A stretch of DNA of 64,000 nt, taken from the IMG/VR virus record IMGVR_UViG_3300033463_000085, positions 1 to 64,000 of that record; one strand, 5' to 3'. The DNA comes from a virus. Lineage: Duplodnaviria > Caudoviricetes. Below are positions 22,219 through 35,690 of the stretch, one piece after another. The first letter of the stretch is position 1. Each line of letters begins with the position of its first letter. The position numbers were made by a program, and so were the translations under genes. The notes below the pieces were generated by a model. The model had not been told where the DNA came from, searched no databases, and worked only from the letters and a program-made list of their open reading frames with translations.

Positions 22219-23622
22219 CTACGCCTTGAGCGAGCGTATGTAGTCCACGAGCCGGGTGCGCTCCGCTGCCGAAAGTCCGTCCACAATGCGCCGCGCCTCC
22301 TTGAATCCGGCGGAACAAGGCGGCTCTTTGGCCGACAGGCCGGAGCCAGAGGGCGGACGCGCTTCAAGTATCGCGCTGTCCGGCGGTTGTTCTGCGGCAA
22401 TGTCTATCACATCGGGGAGCGCGTCGGCCAGCTGCTGCCTGTGCGCCTCCGCGTCGCCGTGGAAATAGTGCGATGTCATCATCGGGCTGGCATGGCCGAC
22501 TATGCTCTGCACATAGGCGAGGGGCATTCCTCCGTTGCCGCACAGGCTAACGAATGTGTGCCGGAGCGAATGGAAGCCTACGACGGTCACCTTGCGCGAA
22601 TAGCCGTCCACGGTCGCTGTCGTGGCAATCCCGGCCTTTTCGAACAAGTCTTGTATATTGGAAACGAGCGAGGAGTTGTCGCGTTCGTATTGCTCCGCCG
22701 TGACCGGAAGCACATACGGCGACCCCTCCGTGCGCGGCGCGTCCTTGAGGACGGCCTGGAGCGACGGATGGAGGCTCATCGTCACGAGCGTTCCGGCCTT
22801 GGCCGTCTTGCGCGGGAGGACATGGATTAGACCGCGCCCAAGGTCTATCGAATCCCATTTGAGGAGGGCGCAGTCGCCGAGCCGGAGGCCTGTGTAGATT
22901 CCGAGCGCGAACAGGATGCGCATTTCGCCCTCAAGCAACGCGCACACCTTCGCAAGCTCCTCGACGGACAGCGCACGCCGTCCCCTCTGCCGCTTGTCGC
23001 CGCGCCGTTCGAACTCGGCCCAAGCGTCGTCCTTGGCGCGTATCTCGCGGGCGAGCTTCTTCCACATCAGCCGCATGAGCGCCAGATATTTGTTGTGGGT
23101 GTTCGCCGAGAACTTCTCGCCGATGCCGTGAAGGAACTTCGCCGCCGTCTCTCTATTCAACTGCCGAAGCTCGCCGACATCCGGCGCGTTGGCCTTTAGC
23201 CATTCGACGAGCCGACCGAACTGGCTCTCGTACATATCCATCGTCGCCGATGATGTGCGTCCCATCCGCTCGCGGAACAGGGCGAACGCGTCCTTGAACG
23301 AGAGGGCTGGCTTCTCGTCCTCGTATCGCTGGATTTCCGCCTTTACCCCGCCGAGCCGGACGATTGCGTTCTGTAGACTTGCGGCCTCGTCGCGGAGGAC
23401 ATAGTGGCGCATCTCCTTGGCAAGCCTCTCCTCCGCCTGTCGCTTGTTCGAGGTCTTGAGGGATTTTGTGTGAATCTTTCCGGCGACAATCCATCGCCCA
23501 AAGTAGGTGTTGCCCCGCTTTACCAAGGAACCCTTGCCCTTTGCCCGCTGCTTCTGCGGCGATTTGTCCCCGCGTTCCTTCGAGGGTGCGGGGCGTGAAG
23601 TCGTGTTTTCGCTCTTGCGCAT
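22219..23622 (-). CDS. int: Tyrosine integrase
   Basis: TGLRLGD, FHSLRHTF, VGH...MTSHY catalytic R-H-x-x-R-H-Y residues; start may be 23643. Confidence 0.95.
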   Translation of the reverse strand: MRKSENTTSRPAPSKERGDKSPQKQRAKGKGSLVKRGNTYFGRWIVAGKIHTKSLKTSNKRQAEERLAKEMRHYVLRDEAASLQNAIVRLGGVKAEIQRYEDEKPALSFKDAFALFRERMGRTSSATMDMYESQFGRLVEWLKANAPDVGELRQLNRETAAKFLHGIGEKFSANTHNKYLALMRLMWKKLAREIRAKDDAWAEFERRGDKRQRGRRALSVEELAKVCALLEGEMRILFALGIYTGLRLGDCALLKWDSIDLGRGLIHVLPRKTAKAGTLVTMSLHPSLQAVLKDAPRTEGSPYVLPVTAEQYERDNSSLVSNIQDLFEKAGIATTATVDGYSRKVTVVGFHSLRHTFVSLCGNGGMPLAYVQSIVGHASPMMTSHYFHGDAEAHRQQLADALPDVIDIAAEQPPDSAILEARPPSGSGLSAKEPPCSAGFKEARRIVDGLSAAERTRLVDYIRSLKA

Positions 23623-23674
23623 TGTGGCGCAATATGATACCATATATTCCGCATTAGGTAAAGGGCGAAAACTG

Positions 23675-24022: not shown

Positions 24023-25243
24023 TCATAACTGCCGCTTCTCCGTCGGCGCGATTCCGAGTATTTCTTCTATCACGGCGACATTTTTCTGCAATCGGGCGTC
24101 GTTCGGCGCGACCTTGAGCGCGTTTCTTGCCGCCTCAAGCGACCCGGAGCGGTCGCCCGTATTCCACTTGGCGAGCGAAAGCAAGTCCCAAGGCTTGTAG
24201 CCCCAGCACCAGTCCTTCGTAAGGTATGTGTAGCACCGCTGACGCACCGACAGGGCGCGTTGAGCGGCGTTCAGGCATACGCTCCACCAAAGGGCCGCGT
24301 CGGCCTTGTCGCCGCCGCTGGCGCGGTCGTGGGCCATCTGCGCAAGCTCCATCGCGGCCTCGCGCTGTTCGGGGGCCTCGGCCATCGCCTTGTAGTACCA
24401 ATCCACGGCCTCCGTTGGCTTGCCAGTCTCGCACAGGCACTTCGCTATGAGGCGCATGGACGCGGCCCTCTCCGGCCTCCACACGGCCCTCGGCATCGAC
24501 AAGTGCCGCTTTAGGGCCGCCAACGCCTCGCCGTAGCGTCCGTTGAACACATATTCGCGCCCAAGATAGTGCGCGTTGCGGTCGTCGTCGGGGCATTCGC
24601 GGACGGAAAGTTCAAGGAGCCGCAAATACGATTCCCTGCTCTTGCCGGGGTCTGAATGGTGTTCGAGCCTCATGCCGGGTATGGCGACCTCCACGCGCTC
24701 CGCGCCGCCGTAGTCCAGGACTTCGTGGACGGGGTGCGTCCATCGGCACAGGCCGTGGGCGTGAACCTTCTTGTAGGTGAACTTCGAGCCGTCCGTTCCG
24801 TCGGCGTTGAAGTTCCACACATACTCGTATGTCCCCGTCGTCGGCTTGCGGCCCTTTGCGACCGCATCGGCCCATGCGGCCTCCAGTTTCGCCCTCCAGC
24901 CGGGACAAAGAACCTCGTCGAGGTCTGTGCAGACGCATATGTCCGTGTCCGGCGGGATGAGGCGCATCGAATCGTTCCTCGCCCAATCGAAGCGCCACGG
25001 CTTCGGGAAGCGTGTGGGGTTCGCCATGTGGTCTAGTAGGGCGCGGCTGTATTCGTCCGGCGTTTTCCAATTGGCGTATGTCGTCGTATCGACGAACGCG
25101 CCGCATTCGCGGAGGAGGGCCACCGTTCCGTCGGTCGAGCCCGTGTCGAGGACTACTATGTCGTCCGCCTCCTTCATGGAATCCACCCAGCGGCGGACAA
25201 ACTTCTCCTCGTTGAAGGAGATTGCATAGACGGTGATTTTCAT
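24023..25243 (-). CDS. Glycosyltransferase family 2 with C-terminal TPR repeats
   Basis: VYAISFNEEK...VVLDTGSTDGT, DLDE, HEVL, H..DPGKSR..Y..LL..S..E.PDD.RN..YLGRE. Confidence 0.88.
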   Translation of the reverse strand: MKITVYAISFNEEKFVRRWVDSMKEADDIVVLDTGSTDGTVALLRECGAFVDTTTYANWKTPDEYSRALLDHMANPTRFPKPWRFDWARNDSMRLIPPDTDICVCTDLDEVLCPGWRAKLEAAWADAVAKGRKPTTGTYEYVWNFNADGTDGSKFTYKKVHAHGLCRWTHPVHEVLDYGGAERVEVAIPGMRLEHHSDPGKSRESYLRLLELSVRECPDDDRNAHYLGREYVFNGRYGEALAALKRHLSMPRAVWRPERAASMRLIAKCLCETGKPTEAVDWYYKAMAEAPEQREAAMELAQMAHDRASGGDKADAALWWSVCLNAAQRALSVRQRCYTYLTKDWCWGYKPWDLLSLAKWNTGDRSGSLEAARNALKVAPNDARLQKNVAVIEEILGIAPTEKRQL

Positions 25244-25268
25244 TGGTCGTGTTCCCATTCAGCAGACA

Positions 25269-25282
25269 GCCAAACCCGTCAA
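25269..25282 (-). promoter_or_regulatory. Late-gene motif variant TTGAC-N5-TGGC
   Basis: TTGACGGGTTTGGC, 26 bp upstream of GT2 start. Confidence 0.5.
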
Positions 25283-25821
25283 TCTTCGACCTCAACCATG
25301 TCGGCGAGCATCTTCTGGGTGTTGGCGTATGCCTTGTCGAGAAGCCCCGGACGGAGGATGTCGGCGTTGAAGTGTCCGCCGCGACCCTTGCCGCTCACGA
25401 CGGAATCGACGATGTGCTCGATTACGTCTATGAGGTTGATGTCCTCCGGCGGCGCATCCTCGATGTGGTGGCGCTCGTAGCGCGTGTGGTAGTGCGCGGC
25501 CCAATCGCTCAACCGCCAGTCTGACTCGCGGATTTCGCCCTTCTGCTTTGCGGAGAAGTGGTTGTAGTATTCGTCGAAGAATTCCATCTTCGTCCAGTCG
25601 TGCTTCGCGCCGCGCTGGCGTATGATTTCCGCCATGCGCTCCATGCCGCGCCGGACATCGCGCCTGTGGGCGACGACGGCCTCGCGCAGCTCCTCCTTGC
25701 CGACGGCGTGGGTCGCGGTCGAGGCGGACGCGGACGGCGTGGGGTGGATGACCATGCGCTTGCGCTCGTCTGATGTCATTGCGAGCGCGTTGGCGACGAT
25801 GGGATTTGTCGATGTCAGCAT
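25279..25821 (-). CDS. DUF5662/HD-superfamily protein with NPIV leader
   Basis: KHDWTK...HY...RHHIE...IDVIEHIVD motifs. Confidence 0.65.
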   Translation of the reverse strand: MLTSTNPIVANALAMTSDERKRMVIHPTPSASASTATHAVGKEELREAVVAHRRDVRRGMERMAEIIRQRGAKHDWTKMEFFDEYYNHFSAKQKGEIRESDWRLSDWAAHYHTRYERHHIEDAPPEDINLIDVIEHIVDSVVSGKGRGGHFNADILRPGLLDKAYANTQKMLADMVEVED

Positions 25822-25961
25822 TTGTCGCTTTCCTTTCCTTGTGGCGGCGGCGCGTCGTGCGCGGCCTTAGGCAGTCCCGAGAGCGGGACGCAAACATGGT
25901 TCTTGAGCCAGGCGGCGGCCTCCGCGTGGGTGGGACATTCCCTGTCCGCGCATTTCGTCAT
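25815..25961 (-). CDS. Small hypothetical protein
   Basis: 48-aa ORF filling the gap with overlapping start/stop. Confidence 0.4.
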   Translation of the reverse strand: MTKCADRECPTHAEAAAWLKNHVCVPLSGLPKAAHDAPPPQGKESDKC

Positions 25962-26731
25962 GGCATCCTCTCCCAGCGCGAGCGGACGGAATACCGCTCG
26001 TCCATCCACCTGCGGAATCCGGCCACGGCGAATGCGTTGTCGTTTATCGAGAATCCGGCGAACTTGTCGGCGCGGCCTTGCTGCATGAGGTCGAGCGTGT
26101 TGCGCGGGAACTTCCTGTCCATTCGCCACACGAGCTTGCGTTTGCCGCAGTTGCGGAGGAGCCATGCGTTGGCGAACAGCGAGTGGAAGTTTGCGCCCAC
26201 ATCGCCGTCCTTGAGGGTGAGGGCGTAGTCCGAAAGCTCCTGCACGATACGCCAGTCGTCGGCGTGGAAGAATGTGTTGAAGTGCTGCGAGAAGTCCATC
26301 GCGGGCATCCCGTGCTCAAGGAGCGCTTCGCGGGCTAGATACAGCGACACATCGAAATTGTTCCCCCCCTCCGCCATCTGCTCGCGGGCGAGGAGCATCG
26401 CGTTCTTCCAATACTGCGGGGCCGTGTCGAAGTCTCTCGGACGGGTGAGGAAATGGTCGTCGGCGGAGAACAGGAATTCACCCTCCACCAATCCGGCCTT
26501 GCAAGCCGCTATAACCTTCGCGCCGAGGTTGCGAGTCTTGCGTTTGCATGGGTCTGGCATCTTGAGGACTTCGCCGGAAAACCAGTCGGGCGCGTAGCCG
26601 ACGACGACGGGCTCGACATTCACCTCGCCGTCCGAGCCGCGAGCGTATCTCTCAAGGGAGCGGAGCGACCAGCGGAACTCGATGTTTCCGTTGGTGGAGC
26701 CCTCCCCCATGACATAGAGAATCTTCATCAT
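25958..26731 (-). CDS. Stealth-like (CR2) sugar-phosphotransferase/glycosyltransferase
   Basis: EFRWSLRSLERY...VVVGYAPDWF, FLFSADDHF; true start MMKILYV at 26731. Confidence 0.6.
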   Translation of the reverse strand: MMKILYVMGEGSTNGNIEFRWSLRSLERYARGSDGEVNVEPVVVGYAPDWFSGEVLKMPDPCKRKTRNLGAKVIAACKAGLVEGEFLFSADDHFLTRPRDFDTAPQYWKNAMLLAREQMAEGGNNFDVSLYLAREALLEHGMPAMDFSQHFNTFFHADDWRIVQELSDYALTLKDGDVGANFHSLFANAWLLRNCGKRKLVWRMDRKFPRNTLDLMQQGRADKFAGFSINDNAFAVAGFRRWMDERYSVRSRWERMP

Positions 26732-27450
26732 ATCGCGGCCTCCCTGTAGCATTCGCGCAGCATCCCCATTCGGGCGTATCTGCGCTGCTGGCCCACCGCG
26801 CTCGTTATGCCGCCGAGGTCGGCCTGTTCCGCGCAGCATGGGAACGAACAATACATCTTGAGGGACGGGTCGCGGCGGTTCATGTAGTAGAAATACTGGT
26901 CGGAAAGGCACATCTTGCCCTCGCCTCTCGCCGCCGCCTCCTGGAAGTAAAGCCACGCCTCCATGCCTTTTCGGGAGAGCGCCCAGCAAGCCGTTGAGCG
27001 CAAGTCCGTAAACCTCTTCCAGTAGCCGTTCACGAGCGGGGCCTTCATGAGCGCGTCGCATTCCTCGTCCGTCGCCTTGCCGCGAACGACCCAATCGAGC
27101 ATGGCGATGTCGTAGTCGTCCGGCAGAGCCTCCACAATCCTTCCGAGCAGGGTCTTGTCCTTGAGGAAGCGGGCGTCGTCCTCCAGTATCAGGACGCTCC
27201 TCTTGCCAAGCTCGTATGCCGTGCGGACGATTCTGTTGTGGTTCAAGGTGCAGTCCATCCAGCCGCCCTTGCACATCCGCGTGTGGCGGACATTGGCTTC
27301 GATGACGCGGACGTATGGGTTTTCGCATCCCCAGAAAGGGACGAACGAGAAGCCGACGCGCATCGTCTCGCGCTCAAGCATCTCGGCGTTCTGCGGCTTC
27401 TTCGAGAAAAGAACGGCCGCCTTCATGTCGAACCTGTCCCAGCAGTTCAT
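26728..27450 (-). CDS. Glycosyltransferase family 25
   Basis: CTLNHNRIV...SVLILEDDARF, STACWALSRKG, SDQY, CAEQ. Confidence 0.75.
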   Translation of the reverse strand: MNCWDRFDMKAAVLFSKKPQNAEMLERETMRVGFSFVPFWGCENPYVRVIEANVRHTRMCKGGWMDCTLNHNRIVRTAYELGKRSVLILEDDARFLKDKTLLGRIVEALPDDYDIAMLDWVVRGKATDEECDALMKAPLVNGYWKRFTDLRSTACWALSRKGMEAWLYFQEAAARGEGKMCLSDQYFYYMNRRDPSLKMYCSFPCCAEQADLGGITSAVGQQRRYARMGMLRECYREAAI

Positions 27451-27559: not shown

Positions 27560-28606
27560 TTAGGCCTCGCCCGACGAGGACGAGCTGGACGAGCTGGAGC
27601 TGTCGGTCGCCGGGGTCTTGGCCGAGACGAGACGGACGATCTTGGTCGGCTGAATGAGCTTCGCGCCGAACAGGCTCTCGCAGGTCGCCACGGTGTCGCC
27701 CGTGCGCCAGTCGCCGCCGCGACGCCACTGGAGGACGAGGCCGGAGGCCGGGTCGCTCGAAGTGCCGAGGTCGCGGTAGAGCTCGGGGTCGACAATCTCG
27801 ATGGTGCGGGAGCCGACGGCGATGGCCGTCTCGGGGATGATTGCGCCGAGAAGGTTCGTGTCGTTCAGCTCGTCCATCTCGATGACGGCCTTGTAGCCGA
27901 GGAGGGCCGGAATCGTGCCGTTCTGCACGGCCTCCGGGCTGCCGTAGGAGTGCGCCTCGAGGTCGGCGAGGAGTTCCGCGTACTTCTCGGGACGGAGCGC
28001 GAGGACGCAGCGGCGGATTGCGAGGTCGTTGTTCACGGCCGCAACGCGAATCTTCGCCGCGAGCTTCTTCGTCAGCTCGCCGTTGCCAAGGACGAACTCG
28101 TTGGCGGCGGAGAACTTGAGCGTGCTCTTGGTCTCGATTTCCTCGCCGTCCTCGTTCACGAAGGTGGTCGTGTCGGTGCCGCTCGTCGGGATGTTCTCCT
28201 TGGTGATGAGGCCGCCGACGATGTTGGCGATGCGGCGACCGACAGCCTCCGAGGAGGAGTTGGCCGTCTTGAGGAGCAGGGCCTTGTTCGTGCCGGACGG
28301 AAGCATGGTGGCCTTCGCCTCGGAGAACTTGAACGAGTGCTTGATGTGCTTGTTGCAGCCCATCGAGACGAACTTCACCTCGCCGTCGTAGTGACCGTAG
28401 TTGTTCGTTTCGCGGTCGTAATCCTTCGCCTCACCGTTGATGATGTAGGGGATGAGGATGGAGCCGCCAGCGGTCATGGTGTCGGGCGAGAAGTCCGTGG
28501 TGAACTGCGAAATCTTCACGATGTCCTTGCGGAGCATCATGATTGTCTGGTTTGCGACGTAGCGCAGACCGGGCGATGCGATTGAACCGAGGTCGGGTTT
28601 ACCCAT
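27560..28606 (-). CDS. Major capsid protein with C-terminal poly-Ser tail
   Basis: 348 aa directly after protease/scaffold; strongly biased codons; ends in ten Ser then GEA. Confidence 0.85.
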   Translation of the reverse strand: MGKPDLGSIASPGLRYVANQTIMMLRKDIVKISQFTTDFSPDTMTAGGSILIPYIINGEAKDYDRETNNYGHYDGEVKFVSMGCNKHIKHSFKFSEAKATMLPSGTNKALLLKTANSSSEAVGRRIANIVGGLITKENIPTSGTDTTTFVNEDGEEIETKSTLKFSAANEFVLGNGELTKKLAAKIRVAAVNNDLAIRRCVLALRPEKYAELLADLEAHSYGSPEAVQNGTIPALLGYKAVIEMDELNDTNLLGAIIPETAIAVGSRTIEIVDPELYRDLGTSSDPASGLVLQWRRGGDWRTGDTVATCESLFGAKLIQPTKIVRLVSAKTPATDSSSSSSSSSSGEA

Positions 28607-28661: not shown

Positions 28662-29972
28662 TTACTTGTCCGCCATTTCCTCAAGGGCCTTGATTTCCTT
28701 TTCGGGGTCGCCTCCGCAAGACGCGAGCGCATCCTTCATGTTGATGACGGTGGGCTTCTTGGCGGCGGCGTTCTCGACGCGGGTGTGCGTCTTGACGGGC
28801 TCACCCGGCTTCTTCGGGGTCTGCGCGTTGGCGACGGCCTTCTTCGCGACGAGGCGGAAGTTGGCGACGGTCTTCTGCGCGGCCTCGGGGTTGGCCTTGA
28901 ACTCCTCCTTGAGGGTTTCCTTGGCCTCTTCCGGGATGACATCCTCGTTCTGCGTGACGAAGGTGTTTGCCTCGTTGTCGAGCTTTTCGGCCTTGAGGGT
29001 TTCCAGCTCGTCGGCCTTGCCCTGGAGGTCAGCGTTTGCGGTCTGGAGGTCGCCGCAGTTCTGGACGAGCCTGTTCACGGCCTCGACAGTCTCTTCGGGA
29101 GTGCTCTTCGTGTCGATGCCAAGCGCGTTCTGCACCTGTTCGACAACGCCACACTTCGCGACGAGGGCATCGAAAGCCTGCTCAACATCTTCATCCTTCG
29201 CGTCGGCGGGGAGTCCGAGTTTTGCACGAATATCCATGTCGTGTGTTTCCTTTTTTGGTTTGTGGGTTGTGATTTCCGGCTCCTGTTTCGGAGTCGGCGT
29301 TGCTGCCGTGCCTTTGTTCTCTTCGGCGTTCGCGGTTGCGCTTGGCACCTTTGCCGTCACGCCATCCGCGTTTGCGGCGGTGGCTCCCGGCTGTGTCTTA
29401 TTTCCCGCTTGGCTGTTGAGCATCGGAGCGACAGGTAAATTGGGGCGGTTCGTGAGGCCGACGGAAACCAGCTCCTCTGGGCGGTTGTCGTCGTCGAGCG
29501 TCCACGCGGCTGAAACGAATCTGTAGACCTTGCCGTTGATTGTTTCCGCGCCGAGGGAGGTCGGCTCTATTTCTGCCATGAGGCCCTTGGCCTCGTCCTT
29601 GAATAGGCGGGCGACCCATGCCATCGCCCTCGTGTCCGTGGAAAGCTCGGAGGAGTGGTCTGCGTCCACGAGGACTTTCCTGTTGGGGTCGAATTTGGCG
29701 ATGAGCGCGTCTATGGCTTTCTCGTCCACCTTCTGGACGACCTCGCGGCGTCCGTCGCGGGCCGTCGGGTCCTCGACCTCCTCCTCAACCGTCTGGCCGT
29801 CCACGACCTTGGATATGACGCGCTTGCCGTCCTGTGCGGTTTCGTCCTCGACCCATTGCGGATATTCGCCGACGGGGGCGAGCTGTATGACGAGGGGCTT
29901 GCCTACCTCTGCGCTCTTCTCCGCAGGTAGGTCGAATGCGACCGCGTTTGTTATGACCTTCTTCGTCGTCAT
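28662..29972 (-). CDS. Mu gpI-like prohead protease/scaffold
   Basis: IQLAPVGE, VDADH, YRFVSAAW, SVGLTNRPNL then low-complexity scaffold region. Confidence 0.88.
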   Translation of the reverse strand: MTTKKVITNAVAFDLPAEKSAEVGKPLVIQLAPVGEYPQWVEDETAQDGKRVISKVVDGQTVEEEVEDPTARDGRREVVQKVDEKAIDALIAKFDPNRKVLVDADHSSELSTDTRAMAWVARLFKDEAKGLMAEIEPTSLGAETINGKVYRFVSAAWTLDDDNRPEELVSVGLTNRPNLPVAPMLNSQAGNKTQPGATAANADGVTAKVPSATANAEENKGTAATPTPKQEPEITTHKPKKETHDMDIRAKLGLPADAKDEDVEQAFDALVAKCGVVEQVQNALGIDTKSTPEETVEAVNRLVQNCGDLQTANADLQGKADELETLKAEKLDNEANTFVTQNEDVIPEEAKETLKEEFKANPEAAQKTVANFRLVAKKAVANAQTPKKPGEPVKTHTRVENAAAKKPTVINMKDALASCGGDPEKEIKALEEMADK

Positions 29973-30148: not shown

Positions 30149-31891
30149 CTACAGCGCGGACATCCAAGCGATTGCGTTCTTGAGTCCGGCCACGGCCTTT
30201 TCAAATTCAGCGAGAAAAGGTTTCGCCTTGGCAATGACTTCCTTTGGAGTTTCCCCCTCAATTCTTGGTCCAAAACTGACATTAAGACCGGAATACAGAC
30301 CGTCTCCGAATGTATAGGCGGTCACATTGCCGAACTGCTTTTTGGTCATCGCGTTCGTGACGACTGCGTTCGCAACCTTGAATTCGCCGCGCTGCGTGTG
30401 GGCGCGTGGCGTCATCGTGAAGCCCGTCTTGCCTCTGCCGTAATCCACGAAGGCGAAAATGTAGTCCGGCTCGAACTTTGCCTTGAGCTGGTCGAGCGCG
30501 GGACGCGCCTTGCGGTCGGCGAGGATTGTGATTTTGCCGTTGCCACGCTCGATGAGGCTGGTCACGCCATCCGTGTAGCCCTCAAGCGAGCCTTGAGGGA
30601 ACTTCGTCTGGATGTTGGACTTGATGTAGCGAATCAACGGCTCGTTGGCGTTCTTGGCGACCGTGGCGTTCAGGGCCTTTTGGACGATTGGGTTTGTGCT
30701 TTTCATTTCGTAGTTCCTTGTTGAGTTTTTCGCTTTGGACGTGTCGTTTGCGGTGGAGGCGTTGGCATTTGCGGCCCGAAGGTGTCGTATGTCCATAACC
30801 CATGTACCGCCCTTGTCGAATCTTACTCTCGCCCGCTGGGGTTCTTTTGGATCATCCTCGAGCCATTCAATCGTCCCCGTCCCCATCGAGCCAAACTTTG
30901 AGGGTATTTCAACAACCCTCTGCCCCTCTTTGAACTTGGCGTTGGCGACAGCCTTGCGGATGCCCTTGGCCCACGATTCAGATACATTCGGGTCGATTCC
31001 GGCGCGTTCAAGAGTGCGGCGTGCGACGACCTTGCACGATATGCCTTCCTCGTCCTTGATTTCCTTGAACACCTCCTGCGCGTCCTCGCGGTATTCATTT
31101 CCGGCGAGGATGCAAGCGCCGGACATCGAGGGCGTGACAACGAACCATTGATACTTGTTCTTGTAGTTGAAATTCGCGGCCACGGCGTTAGGCATTACCA
31201 CGCGAAGAACCGCGCCCAACTGCTCTAGCTTCGCGCCGAGGCGCTTGGCAACAGTCGCCACATCGTGCTTTGCCTTTTCGTGGGCTGCGTCCGCATCCAT
31301 GTCTGATAGGTTGCGCTTGCACACCTTCCAGGCGGCAGCTTTCTTCTTGAGGGCTTCGACGAGGGCCGGGTCGGGCTTCTCGGCCGTGACGATTACATGG
31401 AAGTCGTCAATCCACTTGTCGTTTGCCGTGGCAGCGCTCCGGGCAAGCGGGTCCGCCACCTTAGCCTGCGCATTGCCAATGAGGTCTACGATGCACCCCG
31501 AGCCGAAGCGGCGATGGGCCTCCTTCTCGGCGGCCTTGTAGTTTGGGGCTTCAATCACTACGGAGCGGCCCGATTTTGTCGTCACGGCGAACTTGGCGTT
31601 CACATAGGGGTTGCCCTTGACGGTGAACAGAACGCCGTCGGCTCGCACATCTGCGACTTCTAGCTTGTCGCGGGGGAATCCCGGCTCTGCCATTATGGCG
31701 TCTGGCAAGCGGCCCTTGACGCCTTTCTTGTCGCGGAACTCGACCCACACGAACCACGCGTCCACCTTGGCGGACAGCTTGGGGCACTTGCGGTTGATTT
31801 CCCCGACGAGGACAGACGGCCTCCTGTTGGGGTCGTAGGTTTTCGTCGTGGCGTTCAGCGCCTTCTGCACTATCGGATTTTTGCTTGTCAT
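30149..31891 (-). CDS. Multidomain polyprotein-like protein, putative internal head cargo
   Basis: 580 aa; NPIVQKALNAT twice; short domains separated by AN/NA linkers; internal RBS+ATG at 30706. Confidence 0.75.
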   Translation of the reverse strand: MTSKNPIVQKALNATTKTYDPNRRPSVLVGEINRKCPKLSAKVDAWFVWVEFRDKKGVKGRLPDAIMAEPGFPRDKLEVADVRADGVLFTVKGNPYVNAKFAVTTKSGRSVVIEAPNYKAAEKEAHRRFGSGCIVDLIGNAQAKVADPLARSAATANDKWIDDFHVIVTAEKPDPALVEALKKKAAAWKVCKRNLSDMDADAAHEKAKHDVATVAKRLGAKLEQLGAVLRVVMPNAVAANFNYKNKYQWFVVTPSMSGACILAGNEYREDAQEVFKEIKDEEGISCKVVARRTLERAGIDPNVSESWAKGIRKAVANAKFKEGQRVVEIPSKFGSMGTGTIEWLEDDPKEPQRARVRFDKGGTWVMDIRHLRAANANASTANDTSKAKNSTRNYEMKSTNPIVQKALNATVAKNANEPLIRYIKSNIQTKFPQGSLEGYTDGVTSLIERGNGKITILADRKARPALDQLKAKFEPDYIFAFVDYGRGKTGFTMTPRAHTQRGEFKVANAVVTNAMTKKQFGNVTAYTFGDGLYSGLNVSFGPRIEGETPKEVIAKAKPFLAEFEKAVAGLKNAIAWMSAL

Positions 31892-31926
31892 AAGTGCTTG
31901 CCTTTCATTTTCTTTAAGTTAGCCCC

Positions 31927-31955
31927 TTGCGGGTGCGGGTTTGATTTGCTAAACT
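31927..31955 (+). promoter_or_regulatory. Sigma70-type promoter pointing antisense toward portal 3' end
   Basis: TTGCGG-17bp-TAAACT in the same CCCCTTGCGGG...GATTTGCTAA context as early cassettes. Confidence 0.6.
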
Positions 31956-32025
31956 ATGCACCGACCGAGGAAGAGTCGATGCACCGTCTAGGGCGTAAGC
32001 TGGGGCTCCGCAAGGGGATTGATAG
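31956..32025 (+). ncRNA. Candidate small structured RNA
   Basis: TGCACCGAC/GTCGATGCA hairpin, GC-GTAA-GC and CTCC-GCAA-GGGG GNRA hairpins downstream of promoter. Confidence 0.35.
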
Positions 32026-32029
32026 CACA

Positions 32030-34351
32030 TCACTCGCTCCTCGGTTGGCCTTTTATGATGTAGGCGGACACGATTTTCAGCGTCTTGCTTTTCGTGTCGG
32101 GAACCGCCTCCTGGACGGAAAGGTGTCCGTTGATGCGCTTGCGGATTTCAATTACGGGCGACGGCTTGTTGTCGCCGCCCTTGTATTCCTTCGAGAACAC
32201 CTGCTTGCCGTTCGCGTCCTTTAGGATGTTCACGCTGTCGAAGTGGTGCATGACATATCCGAGCCGCCCGAGGTGGCTTGCGTCCGCCATCGTCGTGTCG
32301 GCCTCGCCGTTTTCGCCGTGCCGCTTGTCGATGTGGCGGACATGGTTGCCCTGAAGCTCAATCTTCCATCCGGCGACATCTACTCCGAGCTTGTCCTTGA
32401 CCTCCTTGGCGAGCGCTTGCGGGGCCTTGCATATCTCGATGCTGGACTTGTTGCGCGTTTCGTCGTCGGCCTTCTGCATCCTCTCCACGAAATCCACGAC
32501 ATTCTTGTTCGTCGAAGCCTTGTATTCCGCGATGCTGTGCTGCTCCTCCGGCGAGTGCCCGTCCTTGTCGGCGGTCTTGCTGACCCCGTGGGTTTCGCAA
32601 TGCGTGCATCCGCCGTCTTTGCGCGTCTCGTAGCCGCACACCTTGCAGGGCGGATTGTGGCCGTTCGCCACGACGGCATTGGGAGCGGGCGCTGCGCCCG
32701 TGGGCTGCTTTGCAATCTGCTCGCCGAAAGCCTCGTTCATCTGCTCGGCGATGACCTCCGCCATAGCGGGGTCGTCTGGAATGAGGGAATCAAGCTCAAG
32801 GCGGAGCTTAGTTGCGGCCTCGGCCCGCTCCTCCTCCGGCATGGCGAGGATGGCGTTCAGCCTGTCGGCCACGGCCTTGAAGTCGTCCTGCAACGACGCG
32901 GCAAGTTCGCTCGCCGCGCCAGACGCGCCAGAAACGCCCTCTGCGGCGTTTGAGGCCACGGGGGGTATGGTTGCCCCTCCGGCGGCCTCCGGCGCTTTCT
33001 GCGTTGGCGTAGGCGGCGTTTTCGAGGGGTCGGGGACGACGATGCCGCGTCCGGGATTGCCGTTCAGCCCGAAACCGCCCCCGTCCGGCTCCTTTTTCTT
33101 GCGAATCGTGAAGCCGGAGAGCTGCGACAATTCGTTTTCGTCCATCTCGTATCCGGCGTTCGAGAACTTGCCCGCAAGCTCCGCCACCTCGTCGGGCGTG
33201 AGCTTCGCGGATGTGTCGAGCTGGAATTCCGCGAGGACTGGCTTGCCCTTGAAGTCCTTGCAGTCCTTGATGAGCTGTTCGCAAAGCTGCTTGTGGAACA
33301 CATTTGACAGGAGGCGGGTGTCGGCGCGGACAATCTGCTTCCACACCTCCATCTGCGCGTTTCCGGCGAGCGTTCCGCTTCCCGATTCCGCAAGGGATGT
33401 GAGCGTTCCGCCAGTCGAAAGAAGCACAAACAGCTTCATCTGATGCTCGATGAATTCCGTAAACGGATTCGTGCCGCGTGATTCGGAGGCATAATCCACC
33501 TCCGAGCCGAATGGAATAACGCCGGAGCGGCCCTCAAACACATTCTCCGCAGCCTGTAGGTAGTCTTTGACCTCTTTTTCAGATGTCAGCTCCGGCATGG
33601 TGATTATGACGGGCGGGAGGCCGTATGTTTCAAGGAAACGGCTCCAGTCGCGCTCGCCGACGGACGCGCGGAGGAATATCATGAGGGCGGGCCAGTCAAT
33701 CTGCCTCTTGCGTGCGACGACAATCGTATCGTCCGGCGGAAGGACGGTCATCTTCCCGTCCGATGCGGACGGCTCGGCGTAGGAGGATGCGTCAGGGTTC
33801 CACAGCCATTTGCGCTCGCTCCTGTCGTAGCACAGGTTCCAATGGTCGAGGCATTCGAGATGGTTTGGCATTCCGTCCGTGCCGAAGTAGGTGTTGAGGA
33901 CGGAGAATCCACGGAACGCGGAAAGCGCGAGGTGCTCGAACGCCTCGGGGAGGTTGTCGATTTTGGCTACGGCCTCTTCGAGGAATTCTATCTGCTCCTT
34001 GACGAGCCCCTTGTCGGCGTTCCTGTTCAGCCGTTCGTTGGAGCGGACTATGCGCCAGTCGAGTTCGGCGATTGCGGAGCATCGGCGCGTGACGCAGGTA
34101 AGGAATGTGGCGTCGCAGTTCTCGATTTCGTTGTAGAGGAACTGGAGCTGCGAGAAGTTTCCGCGCCGCGCCCAATCGTAGATTGTCTGCGCCCGCTTGG
34201 CGTCAATCTGCCACAGCGGGTTCATCGCCTCGAGCATGAGCGACTGTTCCGTCTTTTGCAGACGGCCCGCTATCTTTGCGGCGAACGAGCGCAAGAATCC
34301 CGGCGTCTGCGGATTCTGTGGCGCGGACGATGGTTTCTGTTGTTCTGTCAT
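32030..34351 (-). CDS. DUF935 (Mu gp29-like) portal fused to zinc ribbon and C-terminal PBECR3-like nuclease
   Basis: DWSRFLETYGLPPV, SGSGTLAGNAQ portal motifs; CKVC...CTHC; RHIDKRHGENGEAD...KRING...EAVPD...IVSAYI. Confidence 0.85.
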   Translation of the reverse strand: MTEQQKPSSAPQNPQTPGFLRSFAAKIAGRLQKTEQSLMLEAMNPLWQIDAKRAQTIYDWARRGNFSQLQFLYNEIENCDATFLTCVTRRCSAIAELDWRIVRSNERLNRNADKGLVKEQIEFLEEAVAKIDNLPEAFEHLALSAFRGFSVLNTYFGTDGMPNHLECLDHWNLCYDRSERKWLWNPDASSYAEPSASDGKMTVLPPDDTIVVARKRQIDWPALMIFLRASVGERDWSRFLETYGLPPVIITMPELTSEKEVKDYLQAAENVFEGRSGVIPFGSEVDYASESRGTNPFTEFIEHQMKLFVLLSTGGTLTSLAESGSGTLAGNAQMEVWKQIVRADTRLLSNVFHKQLCEQLIKDCKDFKGKPVLAEFQLDTSAKLTPDEVAELAGKFSNAGYEMDENELSQLSGFTIRKKKEPDGGGFGLNGNPGRGIVVPDPSKTPPTPTQKAPEAAGGATIPPVASNAAEGVSGASGAASELAASLQDDFKAVADRLNAILAMPEEERAEAATKLRLELDSLIPDDPAMAEVIAEQMNEAFGEQIAKQPTGAAPAPNAVVANGHNPPCKVCGYETRKDGGCTHCETHGVSKTADKDGHSPEEQHSIAEYKASTNKNVVDFVERMQKADDETRNKSSIEICKAPQALAKEVKDKLGVDVAGWKIELQGNHVRHIDKRHGENGEADTTMADASHLGRLGYVMHHFDSVNILKDANGKQVFSKEYKGGDNKPSPVIEIRKRINGHLSVQEAVPDTKSKTLKIVSAYIIKGQPRSE

Positions 34352-34390: not shown

Positions 34391-34404
34391 GGCGGCTGCG
34401 TCAA
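34391..34404 (-). promoter_or_regulatory. Late-gene motif variant TTGAC-N5-CGCC
   Basis: GGTTGACGCAGCCGCC, 40 bp upstream of portal start. Confidence 0.55.
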
Positions 34405-35690
34405 CCGAACCTCCTCCTAATGCCGACGGGCATCGCGATTATGCGCTTGCGGGCGGACGCCTTGATGTTGTCCTCCTGCGACATGCGGCCCGAGTCTATG
34501 CCGTGGTTGTCCCTGTCGGGAAGCCGCTCCTTCGGGGCTCCGTCCTTGTAGGTGTCGGATTCGTAGTGGGACAGCTCGTTCCAGCAGAAGGGGCAGCGCT
34601 CCGGGTCGCATACGAGCTTGGTGCGCGAGCGCATCCAGTTCACGCCTACCTCCGGCCAGTCGGGGGCCTTGTAGCAGGGCTTGAGGTTCGCGCCGAGGTG
34701 GTTTATGTTCTGATACCATCCGGCGGGGGCCGTGTCGGCGATTATCGGCGTGTCCTTGAGGCCCTTGCGGCAAATCATCTCGTAGACGGAATCGTAGTAG
34801 GGGTGGTGAAGGACGCCCTCGTCGAAATAGTAGAGGATGTCGCGGTCGTGGTCGTAGTATGTCCCCGTGAGGACTGTCGGGTCGTTCACGATGCCGAAGT
34901 CGAGGCCGTATCGCTTGTCTCGCCACGACGCTATCTGCTCGTCGGTAATCCGCTCGGCCTTGAGGTTGGCGAATATCTCGCCGCCCGTTCCGGTGGCCTC
35001 GCCGAGGAACACATGGCGGTAAAGCTCGAAGTTGGTCTTGCGCATGTGCTCGATGCGCGTCAGCACCGACGGCGGAAGCCAGCCCATCTCGATTATGTCG
35101 CGGTAGTCGGTGCGGTAGACCTTGCGTCCCGGAAACGGCTTGCACGCCTCGGAGTTTATCCAGTTGGCCGTGGACTTGGGCGGGTTGTAGGTGATTATCG
35201 TCGTGAAGGGGCGGTCGCTTCGCTGCATCGAGATTATGACATTCTCGATTTCGTCCCAGCTTGAGAATTCGTCCGACTCCTCGAACCACACGAGGCCCGT
35301 GTAGCCGAACGCGGGCTTCTTGGACTTGTGCTTGCGAGGGTCGTCGAGGCCGAGGAATGTTATGGTCTGGCCCGTGTCCTTGCGCACGAGGCGGAGCGGG
35401 TCGCCCCGCGTGTCGAACAGGTAGTCGGCGGCGAGGCGGTCTTCGCCGAGGGCGATTTTCAGCTCGTTCAGAACCGACCCCTTGAGGTCGACATGGTGCT
35501 TGCGGAAAACGACGGCGTGGCAGTCCTCGTTTCCGGCTGACGTAGTGCGGCCGCCCGTATATGTCGCCGCGAAGCTGGACTTCGCGCTGTATCGGCCACC
35601 CGGAAACCAAGCCTCCGTCGTCTTGCCCGTCACCATGTCGTTCCACGGCTCGTAGTAGACGGGTGCGATAAGCTGCTCTAGTGGTTTCAT
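34401..35690 (-). CDS. terL: Terminase large subunit (PBSX-like)
   Basis: GGRYSAKSS Walker A variant, WFEE Walker B, TYNPP, YGLDFG, DNHGIDSGR. Confidence 0.95.
   Translation of the reverse strand: MKPLEQLIAPVYYEPWNDMVTGKTTEAWFPGGRYSAKSSFAATYTGGRTTSAGNEDCHAVVFRKHHVDLKGSVLNELKIALGEDRLAADYLFDTRGDPLRLVRKDTGQTITFLGLDDPRKHKSKKPAFGYTGLVWFEESDEFSSWDEIENVIISMQRSDRPFTTIITYNPPKSTANWINSEACKPFPGRKVYRTDYRDIIEMGWLPPSVLTRIEHMRKTNFELYRHVFLGEATGTGGEIFANLKAERITDEQIASWRDKRYGLDFGIVNDPTVLTGTYYDHDRDILYYFDEGVLHHPYYDSVYEMICRKGLKDTPIIADTAPAGWYQNINHLGANLKPCYKAPDWPEVGVNWMRSRTKLVCDPERCPFCWNELSHYESDTYKDGAPKERLPDRDNHGIDSGRMSQEDNIKASARKRIIAMPVGIRRRFG

Follow-up and report, generated by a model that had tools for sequence, protein, structure and literature searches.

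The internal proteins and Alt of phage T4 carry a capsid-targeting sequence, are cut by the prohead protease gp21 and are injected together with the DNA. A related route has been suggested for PBECR domains by Iyer et al. 2017 (J Bacteriol, PMC5512222), who in the passages on these architectures name PBECR fusions to the portal as well as to MuF, and propose that the portal- and MuF-fused domains are packaged and injected. Particle delivery has also been proposed for the MuF toxins (Jamet et al. 2017, PMC5576092). In the portal gp29 of phage Mu the C-terminal 124 residues are missing from the virion, which a passage in PMC11915804, citing Grimaud 1996, ascribes to cleavage by protease I. Here we analyse a portal protein with a C-terminal PBECR3 domain, encoded on the minus strand at 32030-34351 of a 64,000-nucleotide stretch of DNA (the window) from the tailed-virus record IMGVR_UViG_3300033463_000085 (Duplodnaviria; Caudoviricetes). 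We propose, at slightly better than even confidence, that this portal carries a grafted knuckle-RNase cargo that is clipped off inside the capsid by a gpI-type protease and injected, and that cuts RNA in the newly infected cell.

Since a portal-PBECR fusion was named by Iyer et al. 2017, the architecture as such is already published. A preliminary description of the window had stated that PBECR domains are typically fused to MuF; such fusions are indeed known, but the statement is incomplete, as portal fusions are named in the same passages of PMC5512222. As in the polyvalent proteins of Iyer and colleagues, a head protein of the packaging system is followed by a C-terminal PBECR domain, a predicted RNase with conserved active-site residues. 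Unlike in those proteins, portal, Cys knuckle and PBECR3 are here fused directly and no MuF is detectable in the phage. With the MuF toxins (PMC5576092, PMC3482391) the locus shares a head-protein trunk, interchangeable C-terminal toxins including BECR RNases, and a place in the packaging module of a temperate phage. It differs from them in that the trunk is a portal, at 12 copies per virion versus 1-2 copies of MuF per SPP1 capsid (PMC5576092), and in that neither a MuF domain nor an adjacent immunity protein gene was found.

The portal belongs to the same family as Mu gp29 (gpH), PF06074, and is accompanied by a protease of the same family, PF10123; in Mu, too, a C-terminal segment is concerned, being removed in maturation. 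The segment here is a knuckle plus a predicted RNase, unlike in Mu, and the rest of the phage (integrase, YqaJ recombinase, methylases) is not Mu-like. We know of no enzyme domain reported in the removed 124-residue segment of the Mu portal. The T4 internal proteins and Alt are comparable as procapsid cargo that a head protease sets free by cutting at a short motif, hydrophobic at P3, and that is then injected, all of which we here propose from the genes. A protein of a related phage (P0130), in which the knuckle-RNase stands behind a short leader ending in the junction motif, recalls the leader-borne loading of T4. Unlike in T4, loading in our phage would be by covalent fusion to the portal rather than by binding to the scaffold core, and the P1 residue would be Asn, not Glu.

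A portal protein with a C-terminal PBECR3 module

The gene is a single open reading frame (ORF) of 773 codons (85.0 kDa) without interruption, as the preliminary description had claimed; all features of the window given below lie on the same minus strand unless stated otherwise. The order of parts is portal, junction, Cys4 knuckle and PBECR3. The portal proper (residues 1-563, 61.8 kDa; 32663-34351) contains the Portal_Mu match and stops where the tailless relatives do, at the position of N563. The Pfam match to Portal_Mu (PF06074) spans residues 72-411 (33119-34138; E 5e-36, 125.1 bits against a cut-off of 23.9) and covers profile positions 3-333 of 336, the PHROG match of the 773-residue protein is phrog_113, portal protein, and the portal part is similar to the solved Mu-type portals of Mu and JBD30 (PDB 9khx, E 8.6e-13; 8rka, E 3.1e-11). 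It is followed by the junction N558-A-V-V-A-N563-G564 (32660-32680), predicted by sequence comparison to be both a protease site and a module boundary, and by a zinc-ribbon-like CxxC-x9-CxxC knuckle (residues 569-585; 32597-32647), which is recognised by its motif and has no Pfam match. The extended PBECR3 module (residues 599-773; 32033-32557) then comprises an N-terminal helical extension and a BECR core at about residues 661-768. The C-terminal cargo from G564 onward, which we call the tail, amounts to 210 residues and 23.2 kDa.

Pfam assigns PBECR3 (PF18812) to residues 643-769 with 40.3 bits, or 44.4 bits with the tail alone, above the cut-off of 30; a six-frame search of the virus record with the PBECR3 model gave 42.3 bits. 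The portal and PBECR3 calls of the preliminary description are right, with Portal_Mu and PBECR3 both above their Pfam cut-offs, its zinc ribbon call agrees with the Cys motif of a zinc-ribbon-like knuckle, and the strings quoted in it are all present (NAVVANG at residues 558-564, CKVC...CTHC at 569-585, RHIDKRHG at 672-679, AVPD at 749-752 and VSAY at 761-764). The MuF families PF04233 and PF06152 gave no match at E≤1 across the whole 76.9-kb record, in keeping with its remark that no separate MuF gene follows the portal. Effector domain and virion head protein are one polypeptide, in late-gene surroundings.

An alignment was built from the tail and nine further PBECR3 segments, which represent five architectures (portal fusions, proteins of 450-1077 residues, an LPD3 protein). 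The invariant columns of this 10-sequence alignment (H-I-x3-H-G, G, D, R, Y, D, G and V-P-D) are all kept in the 773-residue protein, as H673, I674, H678, G679, G682, D690, R696, Y699, D705, G742 and V750-P-D752, and S762 occupies the [ST]-A-Y position, where each of the 10 aligned members has either Ser or Thr. H673 and H678 are located in a modelled helix (H-I-D-K-R-H-G), and S762 in V-S-A-Y. The conserved module is larger than the Pfam model and begins at about H599 with the helical extension.

An AlphaFold2 model of the tail, run with the above alignment, has a predicted local distance difference test (pLDDT) score of 81.9 and a predicted template-modelling (pTM) score of 0.74, with the core above 90. 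Exhaustive structural alignment (VIA-align) of this model against 48,161 PDB representatives returned BECR/RelE-superfamily toxins in every one of the top 19 rows. The best row was BrnT (Z 6.2, root-mean-square deviation 2.6, 75 aligned), the next were the Salmonella toxin-antitoxin toxin 7vd7 (Z 5.5) and CdiA-CT (5i4q and 7m5f, Z 5.2), and further rows contained RelE, YoeB, YafQ and the colicin D tRNase (Z 4.3). The individual Z-scores are modest but the rows are mutually consistent, and the modelled fold is BECR-like, the BECR fold being a helix ahead of a sheet of 4-5 strands. The preliminary description had allowed for a predicted structure without a BECR fold; the structure obtained best matches BECR toxins. 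An ESM Atlas feature search of the tail gave a sub-threshold LPD3 cluster only (0.77) and was not used. We found no biochemical data for PBECR3 members in the literature, where the papers naming PBECR3 are computational, and to our knowledge no PBECR domain has been assayed so far. On the model, the tail is predicted to be a metal-independent endoribonuclease of the BECR fold.

The source record is a metagenome-derived contig, and the fusion might in principle have arisen in assembly or gene calling, or be a decayed and inactive remnant. However, an independent ENA contig, present in two samples, encodes the same 773-residue protein at 96% identity with the same neighbouring genes, and no stop or frameshift of the kind considered in the preliminary description separates the domains in independent assemblies. 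PBECR3 is also C-terminal on portals of only 36-40% identity (P0109, P0110, P0135, P0141). Because an independent assembly from other samples and distant portals carry the same architecture, an assembly artefact is very unlikely to be the source of the fusion. The PBECR3 invariant residues are all intact, and the G+C content at third codon positions (GC3) of the tail, 0.82, is near that of the portal, 0.77; the latter comparison also led us to reject a recent AT-rich acquisition of the tail. Taken as a whole, an artefact or a remnant is hardly credible.

The two near-identical phages, that of the window and that of the ENA contig, differ by 78 synonymous and 26 non-synonymous codons in the portal (93.1% nucleotide identity) and by 7 synonymous and 8 non-synonymous codons in the tail (97.5% nucleotide identity). 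The higher nucleotide identity of the tail indicates that it was shared more recently than the portal. The tail is perhaps also under weaker constraint than the portal, on counts that are small.

The junction and a possible release of the tail

Across the tail-bearing portals (36-96% identical), the boundary between portal and tail is mostly [VIL]-x-N with A, S or G as the next residue, and V561-A-N563-G564 is the only [VIL]-x-N-[ASG] site of the portal. This motif is enriched in the protease encoded downstream (4 observed versus 0.98 expected) and in the intervening 580-residue ORF (5 versus 1.44), and the large terminase has none. The stricter form N-x-[VI][VI]-x-N-[AGS] occurs at 3 sites, versus 0.18 expected, in the six-frame translation of the 64-kb window. 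These are the portal junction, a site at about residue 508 of the 580-residue ORF and the N-terminal leader of the protein encoded at 25279-25821, and all three are within the late (head-region) gene block. Enrichment of the motif is likewise seen in related loci.

An exhaustive HMMER search gave 1,047 PBECR3-like clusters, of which the best 150 representatives were examined. The closest to the tail among these clusters is P0130, a free-standing protein of 228 residues with 54% identity to it. P0130 has a 16-residue leader ending in ...LIAN, continues with GHNPPC... and is collinear with the tail from G564. As its match begins at G564, the evolutionary module boundary falls at the predicted cut. 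The 150 representatives include 30 other short solo PBECR3 proteins, and the motif is not at the start of any of them.

Portals are dodecamers whose C-terminal crown is inside the capsid. A tail at the C-terminus of each subunit would thus place twelve 23.2-kDa knuckle-RNase units inside every procapsid, and the twelve cargo copies would be built in without a separate targeting system. The preliminary description had put twelve nuclease copies at the DNA exit channel, which is loosely right; as the crown faces the interior, they would lie on the head side, at the channel's inner mouth. For its suggestion that the nuclease is ejected first we found no support. The Mu gpI-type prohead protease encoded two genes downstream (28662-29972; PF10123, phrog_328) is the candidate tail-releasing enzyme and would most likely cut after N563, that is after V-A-N and before G564. 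This would leave a mature portal with the C-terminus of the tailless relatives, and the RNase free in the head. At infection the freed RNase would exit with the DNA through the portal and the phage tail, and would then cut RNA in the newly infected cell; the targets suggested in the literature are host mRNA or tRNA, or RNA components of defence systems. We infer cleavage after N563 as the best reading of the comparative evidence, and release of the tail by the prohead protease is plausible from the sequences and by analogy with Mu; packaging as a free protein, ejection and catalytic activity are the further steps that we infer.

Alternatively, the tail may stay uncleaved on the portal crown, where it could bind RNA or other nucleic acids, serve as a plug in packaging or ejection, or act as an RNase in the producing cell before assembly, shutting off host or early phage mRNA as T4 RegB does. 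That the tailless relatives keep the terminal motif fits this alternative, since the motif need then not be a cleavage site. In the passages of Iyer et al. 2017 (PMC5512222) on phage BECR proteins, Mu's MuF is described as carrying an inactive PBECR with a presumed RNA-binding role, and RegB is cited as a phage BECR enzyme acting on phage mRNA. Here, however, every catalytic-type residue is conserved, which speaks for an active enzyme, and twelve folded 23-kDa domains on the crown would crowd the inner channel mouth. Further, the C-terminus of the Mu portal is removed in virions, the module exists in free-standing form, as P0130, starting exactly at the junction, and swapping among unrelated enzymes (below) is a habit of effectors rather than of structural components. 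We consider an uncleaved tail unlikely.

The 580-residue ORF (30149-31891) lies directly downstream of the portal gene, in the position usual for MuF, and matches no Pfam or PHROG family. It was tried as a hidden MuF and rejected, Pfam at E≤5 giving a sub-threshold DUF7012 match only. The peptide N-P-I-V-Q-K-A-L-N-A-T occurs in it twice, at the N-terminus and at about residue 397, and its five sites counted above read [VIL]-x-N-A. Its counterparts are ORFs of 368 and 116 residues in a phage carrying a PBECR2 tail (L002) and, in locus L004, a bead-like ORF of 773 residues with many N-A-V-x-x-N linkers. Judged by its sequence, the 580-residue ORF may encode a protease-processed cargo polyprotein.

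The protein at 25279-25821, which we take to be an HD-domain protein after its label in the preliminary description, starts with M-L-T-S-T-N-P-I-V-A-N-A-L-A-M, with the motif at nucleotide 25806. Leaders of the same type are found in the 580-residue ORF, in the 116-residue ORF of L002 (S-S-N-P-I-V-A-N-A-M) and in P0130. This shared NPIV-type leader may be a capsid-targeting or cleavage leader.

Exchangeable tails and the 3′ flank of the cassette

A word-based homologue search scored 206 portal relatives, of which 121 were examined (the query, P0002 and 119 further listed). Most of the 121 have no tail. In 30 of them the portal stops exactly at the Asn aligned to N563, typically as ...N-K-A-I-P-N; a further 28 extend by at most 15 residues past this Asn, and 27 by more than 15, about 23 of these by more than 100. 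The extended tails form 12 unrelated sequence groups, PBECR1, PBECR2 and PBECR3 among them. By Pfam, PBECR3 tails are carried by P0002 and P0110, a PBECR2 tail by P0010 (portal 80% identical) and a PBECR1 tail by P0119; precomputed matches add PBECR1 tails in P0120 and P0124, with weaker ones in P0014, P0040 and P0058. The other tails have no family assignment; one of them (P0011, portal 65% identical) is a tail with a HAD-phosphatase-like F-D-L-D-G-T-L motif instead of an RNase, indicating that the swappable cargo is not limited to nucleases. Portal fusions make up only a few of the 150 best PBECR3 representatives (P0109, P0135, P0141 and, as fragments, P0133 and P0134), and in most the domain is internal to polyvalent proteins of 1,000-4,000 residues.

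A short Cys-rich knuckle follows the boundary in about two thirds of the portal tails and is of two types, CxxC...CxxC, as here, or E-C-[RH]-x-x-D-x3-C-x2-H-[GD]. The four Cys of our knuckle are kept in P0002 and P0130, and P0034, P0115 and P0128 have analogous knuckles. The second type is found in P0010, P0040, P0058, P0066, P0088, P0095, P0100, P0103, P0109, P0120 and P0122, where it links the junction to unrelated tail domains in the same place as CxxC...CxxC.

Compared with phage L002, which carries PBECR2, the DNA of the window is 90% identical between 37842 and 32738 (about codon 538). Identity is absent over the tail and the first ~70 nt of the downstream spacer and is back at 31958. 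Judged from this comparison, the tail and ~70 nt of its 3′ flank are replaced cleanly as a cassette. Polymorphic C-terminal domains on a conserved trunk are thus found here as 12 tail groups on one portal clade, with DNA breakpoints flanking the tail.

The spacer downstream of the portal gene is 138 nt long (31892-32029), and it is the ~70 nt down to 31959 that belong to the swapped cassette. The spacer is 99% identical to that of locus L006, versus 93% in the portal. Within its swapped part it contains a conserved non-coding motif, CAGCTTACGCCCTAGAC (31986-32002), 27 nt past the portal stop codon. The core of CAGCTTACGCCCTAGAC, A-C-G-Y-C-C followed by C-G within a few bases, is found 27-65 nt past the stop of seven other C-terminal or solo PBECR3 genes (loci L008, L009, L016, L017, L018, L036 and L038), whose downstream neighbours differ. 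L036 and L038 serve as independent tests, since in no other of the 20 IMG/VR PBECR3 loci is the domain C-terminal. The motif is absent after the distant P0109, P0110 and P0141 portals. Two of the distant portal-PBECR3 phages share a hairpin beginning within the stop codon (L010:5152-5200 and L011:2512-2560; GGATGAGCACTTATAGG ... CCAAGTGGATACTCATCC), with apical parts that are unlike, yet paired in both.

Folding of the spacer gave z-scores of -2.2 and -1.9, and the single spacer substitution relative to L006 disrupts a predicted pair. RNAalifold on 6-8 loci and both strands gave no convincing consensus structure, the spacer had no Rfam match at E≤1, and no sigma-70-like promoter was found in it on either strand. 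A scan of the collection with a 20-nt motif returned 4 matches, apparently all due to chance, inside coding regions.

A conserved trunk, polymorphic C-termini and cassette exchange are the hallmark of polymorphic toxins (PMC5576092, PMC3482391), and the tail might accordingly be a toxin for competition between bacteria or between phages, analogous to MuF toxins, which particles would deliver to kill or arrest cells lacking the antidote, with the antidote in the cassette, possibly as the 3′ non-coding element. The phage is temperate, with an integrase at 22219-23643, and at 8 loci, whose neighbouring genes differ, the motif is found after PBECR3 cassettes, both points in favour of such a toxin. 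The 138-nt gap between the portal and the next gene, however, holds no ORF for an immunity protein, the spacer yielded no consensus RNA structure, promoter or Rfam family, and the phage lacks the MuF domain by which the described toxin family is defined. We regard a polymorphic toxin of this kind as quite improbable.

A broader proposal is that in this phage group the Asn-ended linker N-x-[VI][VI]-x-N is a general cargo-loading and release signal for the Mu-type protease, cut before A, G or S, and used either in portal fusions or as a leader (P0130, the 580-residue ORF and the HD protein), with PBECR3 cassettes bringing their own conserved 3′ non-coding element, which could be an RNA regulator or antidote of the RNase. 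We put this forward tentatively and find it, on balance, doubtful.

Several points weigh against a cargo RNase that is clipped off and injected. We know of no established specificity for the Mu-type gpI proteases, so that the proposed cleavage motif derives from comparison, and as the tailless portals retain the terminal peptide, the motif may equally be a binding peptide. No immunity gene was found, and no ORF lies in the 138-nt gap; how the producing cell would tolerate at least 12 RNase copies per particle before assembly is then unexplained, although the absence of an immunity gene is compatible with an anti-host effector. The ratio of non-synonymous to synonymous differences is greater in the tail than in the portal, on small counts. 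As to the structure, the Cys knuckle is modelled at low confidence (pLDDT 41-56), the structural Z-scores are all below 8, and Foldseek of the tail model against the PDB gave no significant match. Finally, the phage has no cultured relative: neither the tail nor the portal core had a tblastn match in 50,697 phage records. A scan of genome contigs with the portal found no relative either, and the sole hint at a host comes from three portal homologues whose names assign them to Kiritimatiellae metagenome-assembled genomes.

Neighbouring genes and biological meaning

Along the minus strand the genes are ordered terminase, portal-PBECR3, 580-residue ORF, protease and major head protein. The large terminase, directly upstream of the portal gene, is at 34401-35690 (Pfam and PHROG) and the major head protein at 27560-28606, the latter by a weak PHROG match. 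The parent virus record is linear, 76.9 kb long and complete by CheckV estimate, and encodes elsewhere an integrase, a YqaJ recombinase, DNA methylases and collagen-like tail fibres. The integrase, YqaJ recombinase and methylases point to a temperate tailed phage that is Mu-like in its head module only. The integrase and the glycosyltransferase-type genes at 24023-27328 are located between the head and tail genes, an unusual spot within the late region. On the plus strand, a TTG-start ORF of 108 residues (31898-32224) overlaps the 3′ end of the nuclease domain in antisense; a search for a promoter-like site gave none, and in this GC-rich DNA the frame is probably open by chance.

Relative to the passages of Iyer et al. 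2017 on portal fusions, the details added here are the [VIL]-x-N/[ASG] junction at the position of the tailless C-terminus, the Cys knuckle and the 3′ non-coding motif. With the junction rule, the knuckle and the free-standing leader form the known architecture is usefully refined, but they do not amount to a system of a new kind.

Effectors delivered by virions are a side of phage-host conflict that has been little explored. The locus offers a compact 23-kDa knuckle-RNase construct, with a predicted N-terminus at G564, for a first assay, and the natural series of portals differing mainly in their tails is suited to swap experiments. If the junction is indeed the protease site, the specificity of the Mu-type head protease would be defined, and the metering of cargo at twelve copies per particle would be explained.

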